Below are positions 1,320 through 62,357 of a DNA stretch of 64,000 bases, in pieces. The stretch lies in NCBI RefSeq assembly GCF_044324875.1, contig NZ_CP172185.1, one strand, 5' to 3'. This DNA is from Escherichia coli (lineage in GTDB: Bacteria > Pseudomonadota > Gammaproteobacteria > Enterobacterales > Enterobacteriaceae). Below the pieces are notes generated by a model. That model saw nothing but the letters and a program-made list of their open reading frames with translations. It was not told the DNA's origin and made no database searches. Position 1 is the first letter of the stretch. Each line of letters begins with the position of its first letter. A program made the translations under genes and the position numbers.

Positions 1320-4300
1320 TTATCCTTTAAAGCAACGGCGGATCACCACAAAGAACACTGGCACGAAGAAGATTGCCAGCAACGTTGCAGAAACCATCCC
1401 GCCCATTACCCCGATACCCACTGCGTTCTGCGCGCCACTGCCGGCACCGTTACTGATAGCTAGCGGTAATACGCCGAGAATAAAGGCGAGAGAGGTCATC
1501 AGGATAGGACGCAGACGCATACGTACTGCCATTAGTGTCGCTTCAACAACACCTTTACCCTCTTTCTCCATGAGATCTTTAGCGAACTCAACAATCAATA
1601 TAGCGTTTTTAGCCGACAAGCCAATTGTCGTTAGCAAGCCCACCATAAAGTAGACGTCATTTTTTTGATTAAAGAGTGTCGCCGCCAGTAGCACGCCGAC
1701 AATCCCTAACGGCACGACCAACATAACCGAGACAGGAATTGACCAGCTTTCATAGAGTGCAGCAAGGCACAGGAAAACAACCACAAAGGAAATTGCTACC
1801 AGAGCGGGAGCCTGGTTTCCCGATAAGCGTTCCTGATATGACATACCCGTCCAGTCATAACCAATGCCAGCTGGTAATTGTGATGCAAGGTTTTCCATCA
1901 ACGCCATGGCATCGCCGGAACTGGTTCCTGGCGCGGCTTCCCCCTGAATCTCCATTGACGGCAGACCGTTGTAGCGCTCCAGTCGCGGAGAGCCATACAC
2001 CCAATGTGCAGTGGTAAAGGCCGAGAATGGTACCATTTCGCCGTTGGCGCTGCGGACATAAAGTTTATGGACATCTTCTGGCAGCATACGGAATTTGGCA
2101 TCCGCCTGAACATACACCTTTTTCACGCGACCACGGTCAATGAAGTCGTTAACGTAAGTCCCACCCAACGCCGTTGAAATGGTCTGATTGATGTCAGAAA
2201 GTGAAACACCTAATGCCTGCGCCTTTTCCTGGTCAACTTCCAGTTTAAACTGCGCGGTGTCTTCCAGACCATTAGGACGCACGCTGACTAAGCTGGCAGG
2301 ATGTTGCGCCGCCATACAAAGCAACTGGTTACGGGCCTGGGTTAGGGCATCGTGACCCAGCCCAGCCTGATCAATTAACTCAAAGTCGAAACCCGTTGCC
2401 GTGCCCAGTTCAACAATGGCTGGCATATTGAATGGAATGACAAAACCGTCGCGGATCTTGCCCAATTCCATTTTGGCACGATGGATTACTGCTTCCGCAC
2501 TGTTTTCGTCACCACTACGCTCTTCCCACGGTTTCAGACTGACGAAGGCCATACCGGCGTTTTGTGCCTGGCCGCTGAAGCTAAAGCCGTTAACCGTAAA
2601 GACACTTTCAACGTTCGCTTTTTCGTTCTTCAGATAGTAATCCGTCACTTGATCCAACACTTTTTGCGTCCGCTCTTGCGTCGCGCCAGCGGGTAACTGA
2701 ATCATGGTCAGAAAGACACCCTGATCCTCTTCAGGTAAGAAGGAAGACGGAAGGCGTAAAAACAACACCACCATTCCTGCAACAATCAGCGCATAGATCA
2801 GTAAATATCGTCCTGTGGAACCGAGGATTTTGCCGACGCTGTTGGTGTAGTGGTTAACGCTATGATCGAAGGTGGTATTAAACCAGCCGAAGAAACCGCC
2901 CTTATTTTCGTGATGCTCAGCAGAGACGGGTTTGAGCAGTGTTGCACATAACGCTGGGGTAAGAATCAATGCCACCAGAACAGAAAGCGCCATTGCCGAA
3001 ACGATGGTGATAGAGAACTGGCGGTAAATTGCCCCAGTAGAACCGCCGAAGAATGCCATTGGAATAAATACCGCTGACAGCACCATCGCGATACCCACCA
3101 GTGCGCCCTGGATTTGCGACATTGATTTTTCCGTCGCTTCTTTTGGCGGGAGCTTATCCTCCATCATCACGCGCTCGACGTTCTCCACCACCACTATCGC
3201 ATCATCGACGAGCAGCCCGATGGCAAGCACCATCCCGAACATCGTTAGTGTATTGATGGAGTAACCAAAAGCGGCGAGGATGGCAAACGTCCCTAACAAC
3301 ACTACGGGTACCGCAATGGTGGGGATCAGCGTTGCTCGCATATTCTGCAAGAACAGATACATCACCAGGAACACCAGCATAATGGCTTCGAACAGCGTTT
3401 TTACCACTTCGTGAATAGAAAGCTGGACGAATGGCGTGGTGTCATAAGGGTAGAGAACCTTCATTCCCTGTGGGAAGAATGGCTGTAATTCCGCCAGTTT
3501 TGCCTTAATGGCTTTCGCGGTATCGAGAGCATTCGCGCCGGTTGCCAGCTTAATACCCAGGCCCGCCGCCGGTTTTCCGTTGATGCGAGCGATAACGTTA
3601 TAGTTTTCACCGCCAAGTTCAACCCGTGCGACATCTTTCAGGCGTACCACCGAGCCGTCACTGTTTACGCGCAGGGTCACTTTGCCGAATTCTTCCGGAT
3701 TTTTTAACCGCGTTTGAGCAATAATCGAGGCATTCAACTGTTGCCCTGGTAACGCTGGCGTTCCGCCCAACTGTCCGGCAGCGATCTGGTCGTTCTGTAC
3801 CCTTAACTGGTTAATCACATCAACCGGCGTCAATTTATATTTGTTTAGCAGATCGGCGTCCAACCAGATACGCATCGCATACTGTGCGCCGAAAAGTTGT
3901 ACGTCACCGACGCCATTCAGACGGCTAAGCGTATCTTTAACGTTAGAGGCCACATAGTCCGAGATATCGTCCTGTGTGGTGCCTGGGTTATCAGAGACAA
4001 AGCCCGCCACCATCAAATAGCTGCTACTGGACTTTTCAACACTGATCCCCTGCTGCTGTACCTCCTGCGGCAGCAACGGCGTGGCGAGCTGGAGTTTGTT
4101 CTGCACCTGCACTTGCGCGATATCTGGATCGGTCCCAGACTGGAAGGTAAGGGTAATTGTCACGCTACCGGCGGAATCGCTGGTGGAGGACATATACATC
4201 AGGTTATCGATACCGTTCATATTCTGTTCGATAACCTGCGTCACCGTATCCTGCACGGTCTGCGCATCAGCGCCCGGATAGTTTGCTGAAACAGAAACCG

Positions 4301-4424
4301 CAGGCGGTGCAATGGTTGGGTATTGGGCGACGGGCAATTGTAGGATCGCCAGTGCGCCCGCCATCATCAGAATAATGGCCAGCACCCATGCAAATATCGG
4401 TCGTCGAATAAAAAAGTTTGCCAT
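1320..4424 (-). CDS. acrF: RND multidrug efflux permease AcrF
   Basis: ORF track 1320..4424 (1034 aa) [23 protein letters not shown]...; AcrB/AcrF family 12-TM transporter; length matches AcrF. Confidence 0.96.
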
Positions 4425-4435
4425 GTCAGATTGCC

Positions 4436-5593
4436 TTACTTCGATGCAGAATCTGCGGGGGTATCGGTAGTGGCTTTAACCTGCTCTCCCGGACGCGCTT
4501 TTTGCAGGCCGCTGACAATGACTTGATCGCCAGATTTCAGACCTTCGCTAATCAACCATTTATCGCCAATCGCCTGACTGGCAACGACAGGGCGCGCTTC
4601 CACCTGACTTTTATCGTTAACAATCAGCACGGTTGCATCACCACGCGGTGTGCGGCTAACGCCTTGTTGCGGGATAAGAATGGCGTCAGGTTGGACGCCT
4701 TCATCAATCCGTGCACGCACAAACATACCCGGCAAAAGCGTATGTTGCGGGTTAGGGAAGACAGCACGTAGGGTTATGGAGCCGGTGCTTTCATCAACGG
4801 TCACATCAGAGAATTGCAGCGTACCTTTCAGGGGATAGGTTTGACCGTTTTCCATGACCAACTCTACGTTGCTGGTGGCGTTTTCCTTATGCAAATTTCC
4901 TTGCTCTACGGATTGCTTCAGCCTCATAAAATCGTTGCTGGATTGGGTCACATCAACGTAGATAGGATCGAGCTGCTGGACAGTCGCCAGTTCAGTCGTT
5001 TGCCCATTAGTGACAAGAGCGCCTTCGGTCACGGTCGATTTGCCGATACGTCCGCTAATTGGCGCAGTCATTTTGGTATAAGCGAGATTGATGAGAGCGC
5101 TTTCGACCGTGGCTTTTGCGGCAATCACGGCGGCATCGGCCTGGCGAGCATCAGCAATGGCCTGGTCGTACTCCTGCTGACTGATGTATTTCGTACCCAC
5201 GAGCGGAACGTAACGTTTTACCGTCAAATGCGCGATGGCGGCGGCGGCTTCACTTTTCGCCAGTTCGCCTTTCGCGCTGTCATAACTTGCCTGATAGGTC
5301 GCGGGATCGATCTGGTACAGGGACTGGCCTGCTTGCACATCGCTGCCTTCAGTGAAATTGCGACTCAGTACGATCCCGCTAACCTGTGGGCGAACTTCGG
5401 CTATACGGTAAGCATTGGTGCGGCCTGGTAATTCAGTCTTAACTTCTAACGGGGCCGTTTTCACAATATGAACGGTAACCTGCGGTTCACCGACGTGAGC
5501 TTTCTCTTCTCCCTTATCGTTACAACCGGCGATTAAAGCCGCGGAGATCAGAATAAAGGAGGGCAGGAGGAAAAACCTGGCATGTTTCGTCAT
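4436..5593 (-). CDS. acrE: Periplasmic adaptor (membrane fusion) lipoprotein AcrE
   Basis: ORF track 4436..5593 (385 aa) [24 protein letters not shown]...; lipobox; 11 bp upstream of acrF. Confidence 0.95.
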
Positions 5594-9505: not shown

Positions 9506-10387
9506 TTAATTCTTACGACCGGTAATGCGGCACCACTCTTCTTTTTCCACGACCGGGTCCAGAGCGAAGCTGTCGGCATAAGCTTCGCAAACGCTCTCTG
9601 CCTGGCTTGCCAGAATACCGGAAAGGCCCAGCAAACCGCCTGAAACTGGCAGGACGCTGATTAACGGTGCCAGTTCACGTAATGGGCCTGCAAGGATGTT
9701 AGCGACCACCACGTCGGCTTTCATTTCTTCTGGCTGATCTTTCGGTAAGTAGAGTTCCAGGCGGTCAGAGACGCCATTACGTTCAGCGTTGTCGCGGCTG
9801 GCCTGAATCGCCTGCGGATCAATATCAATACCAATGGCTTTTTCTGCACCCAGTTTCAGCGCCGCGATAGCCAGAATGCCGGAACCGCAGCCAAAGTCGA
9901 TGACTGTTTTACCGGTTAAATCGAGGCTGTCGAGCCATTGCAGGCACAGAGAGGTAGTTGGATGGGTACCCGTACCAAACGCCAGCCCTGGGTCTAACAT
10001 CACGTTGACGGCGTTTTCGTCCGGCACATCACGCCAGCTTGGGCAGATCCACAGTCGTTCACCAAAGCGCATCGGGTGGAAATTATCCATCCATTCGCGC
10101 TCCCAGTCTTTATCTTCCAGTTGTTCGATTTTATGCGCGAAGCCTGCGCCGAGCAGCGGATGGTTTTCCAGAATCGCCACCACGTCGTTCATATCGGTTT
10201 CAGCATCGAACAGACCAATCACATCGGTGTCGCCCCACAGGCGCGTTTCGCCCGGCAGCGGCTCAAATACTGGCGTATCGTGGGTATCCTGAAAAGTGAT
10301 AGAAACGGCACCCGCTTCCATCAGCGCATCGCTAAGATCTTCCGCGTTCGCGCCGGTGGTGTTCAGTTTCAGTTGGATCCAAGGCAT
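9506..10387 (-). CDS. prmA: Ribosomal protein L11 methyltransferase
   Basis: ORF track 9506..10387 (293 aa) [34 protein letters not shown]...; SAM-MTase motifs ([13 protein letters not shown]). Confidence 0.95.
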
Positions 10388-10398
10388 GGCAAAACTCT

Positions 10399-11850
10399 TT
10401 ATTTATCAGTAGTCAAAACGGTAGCTTGCGGGACGGATGTACCGAAACGGTTTCCGACCATGAAAGCCAGCAAACTTAGTAGTAACGAGGGCACGATAGG
10501 GTGGAAGCCCAGGTACTGAATATTCAGCGTCGCGAGTACGGCATACAGTACGCCGCCAACAATCATCGCACTTAGCGCGCCTTTGGCGTTGGCGCGTTCC
10601 CAGTAAAGACCCAGTACCAGCGGCCACAGGAAAACGGCTTCCAGCCCACCGAAGGCCAGCAAATTCAGCCAGATGATCATTTCTGGCGGCTTCCAGGCGG
10701 CAAGCAGCAGCAACGCACCGAGAACTAACGTAATTACCGCCGACATCCGCTTCAGACGCGTCTCGTTTTGCATTTGATCCGGACGGATATTCAAATAGAG
10801 ATCTTTAATGATCGTAGCGGAACTTTGCAGCAACTGGGCATTGATCGTCGACATGATCGCAGCCATAGGTGCAGCCAGGAAGATCCCGGCAGCAAACGGT
10901 GGCAACACTTTTACCATTAACGTCGGGATCACCAGGTCCGGTACGGTGAGATCGGGGATCACCGCCCGACCTAACGCTCCGGCCAGGTGCATACCGAACA
11001 TCAGGATTGCGACCACAATCGTACCGATGATGATCCCCCGATGTACGGCTTTGCTGTCTTTATAAGAGATACAGCGCACCGCAGTATGCGGCAGGCCAAT
11101 CACGCCAAAACACACCAGCACCCAGAACGACGTCATAAAGGCAGGCGACAGAATATCGTCAGCGCCTTGTGGCGTAACCAGTTGCGGATCGATGGTTTGC
11201 AGCGTCTCTACCGCATTGCTTAAGCCGCCAGCAGCATGGACCACGCCAATAAGCAGCACAATGGTGCCAATCAGCATCACCAGCCCTTGCATGGTGTCGT
11301 TCAGCACGCTGGCGCGAAAGCCGCCGAAGGCGGTGTAGAGCGCAATGCTGATGCCAAAAATCAGCAAACCTGTTTCATAAGGAATACCCGCCGCGGTTTC
11401 CAGCAGACGCGCACCGCCGATAAACTGCACGGTCATCGCACCAACGAACGCAACCAGCAAACTTAAACTCGCCAGCCACACCAGCAGACGACTCTGGTAG
11501 CGGGCAAATAGCATATCGTTCAGCGTCACCGCATTGTAGCGGCGCGCAAGAATCGCGAACTTCTTGCCGAGAATACCGAGCGAAAGCCAGACCGCAGGAA
11601 GTTGAATCATCGCCAGCAATACCCAACCCAGGCCGTATTTATAAGCAGCTCCAGGCCCGCCGATAAACGAACTGGCACTGATATAGGTCGCGGTGAGCGT
11701 CATCGCCAGCACAATACCGCCCATAGAGCGGCTACCGAGGAAATACTCATTAAGGAAGGTGCCGGTGCTCCGTTTACGCATCGCATAAACAGAGATACCG
11801 AACACCACCACCAGATAGGCGACCAGCGGTAGAATCACTTCAAGCTGCAT
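10399..11850 (-). CDS. panF: Sodium/pantothenate symporter
   Basis: ORF track 10399..11856; start set at [13 protein letters not shown]... (483 aa); SSS-family transporter; 11 bp upstream of prmA. Confidence 0.93.
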
Positions 11851-12082
11851 CGTCATCCTCCAGTGGGATATCGCGATAGATAAATTTCACCATCGCCCAG
11901 CACAGTCCAATAAACAGCAGCGGCGTCAGGATGCAGGCCATCTCAAACCAGCGCGGAAAGCCGGTAAAACCGGGGGCAACGCCAGGTAAGTAAGCGGCTA
12001 CTAACCATACCGCCAGATACAAAAGGGTCAGCCCCAGCGCCCAGCGCGCCTCTTTATGGGCCTGAACAAAACGAGTGTCCAT
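11840..12082 (-). CDS. yhdT: Small inner-membrane protein YhdT (DUF997)
   Basis: ORF track 11840..12082 (80 aa), two hydrophobic segments; 3' end overlaps panF start by 11 nt. Confidence 0.85.
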   Translation of the reverse strand: MDTRFVQAHKEARWALGLTLLYLAVWLVAAYLPGVAPGFTGFPRWFEMACILTPLLFIGLCWAMVKFIYRDIPLEDDDAA

Positions 12083-12144
12083 TTTTTGTCCCTGATGGGT
12101 GAAGAAAGCGGGGATTGTACCTTATGGGGGTTGTCGATCCCCAG

Positions 12145-12172
12145 TAATAAAAAAGGCCGGAAAATCCGGCCT
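12145..12172 (-). terminator. Intrinsic terminator downstream of accC
   Basis: ggccgg-aaaatc-cggcc hairpin (12155-12171); on minus strand followed by T-run (plus aaaaaa 12149-12154). Confidence 0.65.
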
Positions 12173-12190
12173 TTTGACGCTTTTGCAGTC

Positions 12191-62245: not shown

Positions 62246-62357
62246 CCCCGGCTAGACCGGGGTGCGCGAATACTGCGCCAACACCAGGGAAATCTTGGCT
62301 GCGCCGTAAATTATTATGATGAGTTACAAGGGCACAGCACTGTTTTTCAGGCCGCAC
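62237..62357 (-). ncRNA. arcZ: ArcZ (SraH/RyhA) small regulatory RNA
   Basis: Reverse complement of 62237-62357 reads GTGCGGCCTGAAAAACAGTGCTGTGCCCTTGTAACTCATCATAATAATTTACGGCGCAGCCAAGATTTCCCTGGTGTTGGCGCAGTATTCGCGCACCCCGGTCTAGCCGGGGTCATTTTTT, which matches the ArcZ sequence as I recall it, including its terminator; 3' end overlaps the arcB stop codon. Confidence 0.88.

Follow-up and report, generated by a model that had tools for sequence, protein, structure and literature searches.

Does an overlap of 11 nucleotides (nt) between a small open reading frame (ORF) and the gene of a well-known transporter reflect a functional bond between the two encoded proteins? This question is raised by yhdT and panF of Escherichia coli, which we analyzed in a 64,000-nt stretch of the chromosome (contig NZ_CP172185.1 of assembly GCF_044324875.1; this whole stretch is referred to as the window). 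With a 2-kb query around the yhdT/panF junction, 5425 of the 5426 complete E. coli genomes gave a match at ≥95% identity, the best being 99.7%. Both genes lie on the minus strand. The panF coding sequence (10399–11850, minus strand; start codon ATG at 11850–11848, as in RefSeq) encodes a sodium/pantothenate symporter of 483 amino acids (aa), which belongs to the SSS family (TC 2.A.21) according to Pfam (SSF, E 6e-146) and NCBIfam (TIGR02119 PanF, 758.8 bits; cutoff 328.05). In textbooks, PanF is the bacterial uptake system for pantothenate (vitamin B5), and it is treated as a single-subunit carrier. The yhdT coding sequence (11840–12082, minus strand), recognized as an ORF and by Pfam, NCBIfam, and RefSeq, encodes an 80-aa protein of the DUF997/YhdT family with a predicted helical hairpin of two transmembrane (TM) segments. 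We find that the overlap itself is ordinary bacterial gene architecture, which is already annotated, and that the more valuable result concerns the proteins: judged from comparative sequence evidence, YhdT and its DUF997 relatives are very probably dedicated functional partners of PanF-type symporters.

The evidence that carries this reading is the pairing of the two genes far beyond E. coli, which we approached from both sides. On the YhdT side, an exhaustive HMMER search yielded 11 distant DUF997 cluster representatives (32–44% identity to YhdT) that were located on contigs, and all 11 are followed directly, on the same strand, by a gene of the SSF family. TIGR02119 PanF was the best NCBIfam match of the downstream protein in all seven cases tested; among these, three full-length proteins scored 640–679 bits and one scored 311 (cutoff 328). 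On the PanF side, a tblastn search against PLSDB records gave five PanF loci outside Enterobacterales with 47–65% identity (Cytobacillus, Bacillus sp., Cetobacterium, Fusobacterium, and Aeromonas), each of which carries a DUF997 ORF directly upstream (hmmsearch E 2e-28 to 3e-35), whereas neither of the two non-PanF SSS controls does (Vibrio, 30% identity; Haladaptatus, 29%). A further scan with one genome per species provided 80 Enterobacterales loci, or 81 counting the E. coli reference, from genera including Escherichia, Kosakonia, Raoultella, Siccibacter, Photorhabdus, Xenorhabdus, Pantoea, Mixta, Serratia, and Symbiopectobacterium. DUF997 stands directly upstream of the SSS large subunit at 81/81 of these loci and in 16/16 other lineages, and the pairing extends over Pseudomonadota, Bacillota, Fusobacteriota, and metagenomic lineages.

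The pairing is kept in differing surroundings and with differing spacing. The accBC…prmA-dus gene order is retained at two of the distant loci (L082 and L087), the neighbors are entirely different at four others (L085, L091, L095, and L097), and synteny of prmA with yhdT-panF is confined to Gammaproteobacteria. In the 16 lineages outside Enterobacterales, the spacing between the end of yhdT and the start of panF is −11 nt in three (including Aeromonas), −8 nt in two, −4 nt in five, −1 and +3 nt in one each, +8 nt in two, and +11 and +43 nt in one each, so that 15 of the 16 fall within ±11 nt. Because the spacing varies from −11 to +43 nt, the conserved feature is tight adjacency and not one coupling geometry. 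At one metagenomic locus (L096, 755–3457), genes for a type III pantothenate kinase (PF03309), a DUF997 protein, and an SSF protein follow each other in a row, with overlaps of 20 nt (kinase/DUF997) and 4 nt (DUF997/SSF). Judging by its gene content, this locus looks like a compact module for pantothenate uptake and phosphorylation.

YhdT itself has the marks of a conserved membrane protein. It matches Pfam DUF997 (PF06196) with 98.1 bits against a cutoff of 26.3 (E 2.8e-28) and the NCBIfam equivalog NF007918 over its full length (1–80; 167.6 bits, cutoff 107). Across 76 Enterobacterales orthologues, the non-overlapping part of the gene (codons 1–74) has a median proportion of synonymous differences (pS) of 0.69 and of nonsynonymous differences (pN) of 0.22, which corresponds to a dN/dS of about 0.16 with synonymous sites saturated. 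These values indicate purifying selection at the protein level, and on such evolutionary evidence yhdT appears to be translated. In an alignment of 49 diverse DUF997 members, reaching down to 29% identity, residues E11, W26, P43, W45, F46, and C50 show little or no variation, and a C-terminal motif, F-x-D-x-P-L-[DE]-[DE], is kept. AlphaFold2 predicts a two-helix hairpin (helices 3–31 and 44–67) with a predicted local distance difference test score (pLDDT) of 91.4. The counts of lysine and arginine residues (three in the N-terminus, one in the loop, and two in the C-terminus) suggest, by the positive-inside rule, that both termini are cytoplasmic. A Foldseek search with the hairpin model returned nothing meaningful. 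Among 100 cluster representatives, we found no natural fusion of DUF997 with an SSS protein, which may be explained by topology, as the YhdT C-terminus is predicted to be cytoplasmic and the PanF N-terminus periplasmic. The sole long DUF997 match, P0174 (637 aa), was considered as a fusion and rejected as a junk repeat protein. Separately, 14 of the 49 DUF997 members weakly match Pfam DctQ, the small membrane subunit of TRAP transporters (best E 0.0042). This similarity may reflect transmembrane composition only; DctQ is likewise a small accessory subunit of a secondary transporter.

Small partners are known from other members of the SSS family, and two bacterial types resemble YhdT in size, topology, and gene position. 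Genes of DUF4212 proteins and of the DUF485 protein YjcH are cofit with the adjacent SSS permease genes in random barcode transposon-site sequencing (RB-TnSeq), and their products have been proposed to be transporter components (Price et al, bioRxiv 10.1101/072470). DUF4212 proteins (TIGR03647, the SSS small subunit that accompanies VC_2705-family large subunits, TIGR03648) have about 85 aa and two TM helices and are encoded directly 5′ of the permease. They share with DUF997 a tryptophan in the first TM helix (TM1) and a similar loop, G-G-F-[PK]-L-G-F-W-F in DUF4212 and G-[FL]-P-x-W-F in DUF997. The RB-TnSeq cofitness indicates that transporter activity needs DUF4212. In contrast, the partner of YhdT belongs to another SSS clade (PanF, TIGR02119), and the loop is followed by E-x-S-C in DUF997 and by A-Q-Q-G-S in DUF4212. 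YjcH, the partner of ActP-type acetate/monocarboxylate permeases, is also a small inner-membrane protein with two TM helices, and its gene lies immediately upstream of the permease gene and overlaps it (by 4 nt, ATGA, in E. coli yjcH-actP). It differs from YhdT in the SSS clade and substrate of its partner, and there is no detectable sequence relation between the two.

Profile comparisons bear on whether these likenesses reflect common descent. The DUF4212 proteins were retrieved with a seed sequence, which was used as a hook only and was confirmed by Pfam as DUF4212 (E 5.5e-40). Alignment of the DUF997 and DUF4212 profiles with hhalign gave a probability of 58% (E 9.7e-5 over 47 columns), with the TM1 tryptophan, the G-[FL]-P loop, and the second TM helix in register; control comparisons with DUF485 gave 5% and 3%, and homology of DUF997 to DUF485 was rejected on these values. 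In addition, 6 of the 49 DUF997 members weakly match Pfam DUF4212 (best E 0.0027). This remote similarity is suggestive. Against it stand the match of E. coli YhdT to Pfam DUF4212 (PF13937), which at 9 bits is below the family threshold of 30, and the fact that scores of this kind can be inflated by transmembrane composition. We therefore treat a distant relationship of YhdT to the DUF4212 small subunits as tentative, with somewhat less than an even chance of being correct.

A third parallel comes from human transporters. MAP17 is an auxiliary subunit that is essential for SGLT2 and binds its helix TM13; the literature disputes whether it activates SGLT2 or promotes its surface expression (PMC10803289). 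Like the role proposed for YhdT, MAP17 (PDZK1IP1, acting with SGLT2/SGLT1) is a small membrane protein at the periphery of an SSS-fold transporter that is needed for robust activity or expression. Unlike YhdT, it is a eukaryotic protein with one TM helix and an unrelated sequence, and it is not encoded beside the transporter gene, so that the parallel is one of analogy only. A wider proposal would join these threads: DUF997 and DUF4212 would have diverged within a single ancient family of hairpin subunits with two helices, entire SSS clades including PanF would be obligate heterodimers and the bacterial counterpart of SGLT2-MAP17, and the synthetic lethality of yhdT described below would reflect a real need for YhdT and not polarity. 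Taken as a whole, we regard this proposal as rather unlikely.

Structure prediction adds to the case that YhdT and PanF associate. A fused chain, PanF-(G4S)6-YhdT, modeled with AlphaFold2 from 22 paired rows, had a predicted TM-score (pTM) of 0.83 and a pLDDT of about 93 in the YhdT segment. As 0.83 exceeds the ceiling of 0.81 (483/593) that would hold if PanF alone were placed, YhdT is positioned with some confidence; these are summary scores of a single fusion, and the support that they lend to an association is weak. In the PDB, the PanF model finds its best fold matches in SGLT2 and SGLT1 chains from complexes with MAP17 (TMq 0.71).

Genetic data bear on the same point. The Keio deletion of yhdT presumably leaves the last six codons and the stop of the gene in place, and so the panF ATG and most of its Shine-Dalgarno (SD) sequence, which means that polarity on panF is not a given. 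This deletion is synthetic-lethal with deletions of panB, panC, panD, and panZ, exactly like the panF deletion, and besides recombination genes, no genes other than yhdT and panF have this effect with all four when deleted (Cote et al, 2016; PMC5120140). In passing, that paper states the overlap as 10 nt, where we count 11, and once writes “ydhT” for yhdT.

Taken together, these data are consistent with the following model. yhdT and panF would form a two-gene module for one transport system, in which YhdT is a small inner-membrane hairpin of two TM helices with both termini predicted to be cytoplasmic, which would associate with PanF, the Na+/pantothenate symporter of 483 aa, and act as its accessory subunit or as an assembly or stability factor. 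The initial annotation of this DNA had suggested that YhdT may be a transporter accessory subunit. This suggestion is well supported by the comparative pairing with PanF-type SSS transporters, in whatever neighborhood, but unproven. We consider it probable, with somewhat less confidence than the functional link, that YhdT is a small membrane subunit or assembly factor of PanF. Several points weigh against this assignment. The synthetic lethality of yhdT was ascribed to disruption of panF, that is, to polarity, without an experimental test (Cote et al, 2016; PMC5120140). AlphaFold2 tends to pack hydrophobic helices together regardless of their relation. The PDB contains no PanF structure, no entry with DUF997, and no relative of DUF997 (best match E 0.095, spurious). 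Finally, the searchable literature yielded no relevant paper on YhdT function, DUF997, or a PanF accessory subunit, no direct evidence for a YhdT-PanF complex or for a YhdT requirement, and no paper proposing or testing YhdT as a partner of PanF.

Among the alternatives, the one that fares best keeps the functional link and changes its nature: YhdT would be a regulator of PanF, for example a partner that inhibits or gates it and so adjusts uptake to coenzyme A or pantothenate status, or a transient chaperone for membrane insertion. The comparative pairing fits such a role as well, since it supports a functional linkage but specifies neither a sign nor a stoichiometry. The tail of YhdT, which is conserved, acidic, and by prediction cytoplasmic (D-x-P-L-E/D-D), could serve as a surface for regulation, and the MAP17 precedent is itself split between activation and surface expression (PMC10803289). 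However, the yhdT deletion resembles a loss of uptake and not a gain (PMC5120140), an observation that is confounded by polarity, and nothing in the data sets a regulator apart from a stable subunit. On balance, we consider a regulatory role unlikely and retain the accessory subunit or assembly factor as the preferred assignment.

The other alternatives concern the junction of the two genes, the features of which are as follows. The overlap (ATGCAGCTTGA; 11840–11850, minus strand) spans 11 nt and comprises panF codons 1–3 plus the first two bases of the fourth codon. In the yhdT frame, it consists of the last yhdT codons and the TGA stop (11842–11840, minus strand), and the minus-strand junction in this frame is …CTG GAG GAT GAC GAT GCA GCT TGA. 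In the RefSeq annotation of E. coli, the overlap likewise measures 11 nt (L001; panF at 3100–4551, yhdT at 4541–4783), so the statement of the initial annotation that yhdT ends 11 nt inside panF is borne out by both the sequence and RefSeq. The span that it gave for the overlap, 11840–11856 (17 nt), begins correctly and runs 6 nt too far, to an in-frame upstream ATG. This ATG (11854–11856, minus strand), 6 nt 5′ of the annotated start, begins the longest panF ORF (485 aa). As a panF start, it was rejected: it leaves no spacer to the GGAGG of the SD, is unconserved in other genera, and is not the RefSeq start. It is probably not used. ORF-based gene callers could mis-start panF at 11856, and the end coordinate of the initial annotation coincides with this position.

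The SD sequence of panF, GGAGG (11857–11861, minus strand), lies within the yhdT codons for Leu-Glu-Asp (CTG GAG GAT), at the canonical spacing of 6 nt to the panF ATG. Comparison across Enterobacterales confirmed that the overlap is conserved, as it is exactly 11 nt long at 80 of the 81 loci, with Izhakiella as the sole exception (17 nt). The 59 distinct junction sequences follow the consensus cTgGaggA-N5-aTG-N5-TGA, in which the SD portion, cTgGaggA, is near-invariant. Codon 3 of panF occurs in eight forms (AGT, ACT, AAT, CTT, CCT, GGT, TTT, and GCT), which encode eight amino acids, and its wobble T, the first base of the yhdT stop, is invariant in 59/59 distinct junctions. In Serratia and Symbiopectobacterium (L048, L060, L062, and L079), the glutamate of the P-L-E-D tail is replaced by glycine (Leu-Gly-Asp; CTGGGAGAC or TTAGGAGAC), and these junctions keep a purine-rich panF SD despite the change in the YhdT residue. 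They are a visible case of the SD of a downstream gene constraining the upstream protein. An 11-nt overlap also occurs in Aeromonas (L102), in a Pasteurellaceae-like locus (L082), and in a gammaproteobacterial genome (L094).

On this comparative record, the overlap is evidently not due to chance, and the invariant wobble T and the retained purine run of the SD show selection on the dual-coded junction; the patterns alone do not give the reason for this selection. The 11-nt form is best described as a lineage-specific variant of the tight adjacency seen across the family. At the L094 locus (CP028897.1, 3001–4700), yhdT is intact and the downstream SSF gene is called as three fragments of 238, 101, and 160 aa, which probably represent a panF pseudogene or sequencing frameshifts.

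One possible reason for such a junction is translational coupling, which the initial annotation had read from the overlap. The geometry permits it. The SD and AUG of panF lie inside yhdT, and ribosomes that reach the yhdT stop, 8 nt beyond the panF AUG, terminate on the panF initiation region. In these respects, yhdT-panF resembles coupled overlapping pairs of the ATGA/TGATG type, which are on the same strand, have the downstream SD and AUG within the upstream gene and stop and start within one ribosome footprint, and form a class that is enriched for complex subunits. Among E. coli gene pairs, those spaced −8 to +10 nt, the range predictive of termination-reinitiation, are 4.5-fold enriched for heteromeric complexes (30.4% vs 6.8%), and overlaps of −4, −1, and −8 nt dominate while longer ones are rare (Huber et al, 2023; PMC10666635). 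The co-directional yhdT and panF, at 11 nt, fall just outside this range, and unlike pairs with the common overlaps of 4, 1, or 8 nt, they would need a backward movement of about 8 nt for re-initiation.

In the proposed module, yhdT and panF would be co-transcribed, with the ribosome-binding site of panF (GGAGG, 6 nt, AUG) placed within the codons of the conserved acidic C-terminal tail of YhdT. Ribosomes ending yhdT would then re-initiate at panF, pulled back a few nucleotides by the SD, or panF would be initiated de novo at its own SD; by either route, a single mRNA would supply both proteins at one membrane site, and their rates of synthesis would be linked. Against an enforced dependence of panF on yhdT stand several findings: panF has its own strong GGAGG at ideal spacing, the 121-nt junction folds no better than shuffled sequences (z = −0.75), an RNAalifold analysis of a 29-species Enterobacterales junction alignment gave zero consensus pairs, and some lineages have gaps of +8, +11, and +43 nt. 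A conserved hairpin masking the panF start was rejected on the same folding results. Coupling of panF translation to that of yhdT is in our view plausible, at a little short of an even chance.

The overlap might also result from operon compaction by drift of start and stop codons, frozen by dual coding, with YhdT having a membrane role unrelated to pantothenate transport and being merely co-transcribed. Bacterial genomes very commonly contain short overlaps between genes of one strand, and only about 30% of tightly spaced E. coli pairs encode complex subunits, leaving about 70% that do not (PMC10666635). Once formed, an 11-nt overlap is hard to alter without damage to a terminus, which alone could explain the invariant length and the wobble T, and the lack of a conserved RNA structure at the junction in 29 species likewise speaks for compaction. 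What compaction does not account for is the DUF997-PanF pairing, which crosses Pseudomonadota, Bacillota, Fusobacteriota, and metagenomes at spacings of −11 to +43 nt and among differing neighbors, is found at 5/5 loci sampled through PanF against 0/2 non-PanF SSS controls, and at one locus (L096) is joined by a pantothenate kinase. We regard compaction without a functional link as improbable.

More improbable still is that yhdT is mainly a translated leader ORF that delivers ribosomes to the panF start or unmasks it and whose polypeptide is dispensable: the panF SD and AUG inside yhdT with the stop 8 nt past that AUG, the yhdT deletion that phenocopies the panF deletion (PMC5120140), and a yhdT SD that looks weaker than that of panF would suit such a leader, whereas the dN/dS of about 0.16, the residues invariant across phyla, the high-confidence predicted hairpin, the retention of DUF997 in lineages without an overlap (+8, +11, and +43 nt), and the lack of an RNA structure occluding the panF start argue for a functional polypeptide. 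The yhdT initiation region referred to here (12080–12093, minus strand), inferred by reading the sequence, consists of the start codon at 12082–12080 and the SD-like AGGGA at 12093–12089, with 6-nt spacing.

An accessory role of YhdT would have several consequences. If YhdT is required, heterologous expression of PanF, transport assays, and structural work should include it, and a second look would be due for metabolic models and genetic screens in which yhdT phenotypes are dismissed as polar. Such a role would give a function to a domain of unknown function that is found across several phyla, and would make DUF997 the third bacterial small hairpin partner of LeuT-fold SSS transporters, after DUF4212 and DUF485. 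It would also parallel human SGLT2-MAP17 and suggest that small partners are general in the SSS family.

With its neighbors, the pair forms the minus-strand series accB, accC, yhdT, panF, prmA, dusB, and fis. A strong intrinsic terminator hairpin follows accC (12151–12175, minus strand; AAAAGGCCGGATTTTCCGGCCTTTT and then a T run; 11 pairs, six of them G-C) and separates accBC from yhdT-panF-prmA. A promoter scan between this terminator and yhdT found no sigma-70 consensus promoter, and yhdT-panF-prmA may be transcribed via readthrough or from a non-consensus promoter. The interval between the accC terminator and yhdT (12083–12190, minus strand) also contains a second small GGGG…CCCC hairpin and a TACAAT box. 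On the other side, prmA (9506–10387, minus strand) is the next gene on the same strand and starts 11 nt past the panF stop. This gap (10388–10398, minus strand) belongs to the class of +9 to +12 nt, a small E. coli-specific peak of intergenic distances (Huber et al, 2023; PMC10666635).

Some minor observations concern the public records and the remainder of the window. An enterobacterial yhdT is present in a contig labeled “Chryseobacterium sp. 18061” (L007) and an enterobacterial YhdT protein is labeled “Pseudomonas lundensis” (P0097), which indicates labeling problems in these records, and several chromosomes of 4–5 Mb are filed as plasmids in PLSDB (hits H9–H11, H15, and H19–H21). The sole Rfam match at gathering level in the window is the small RNA ArcZ (RF00081, 120.8 bits), at 62250–62357 on the minus strand.

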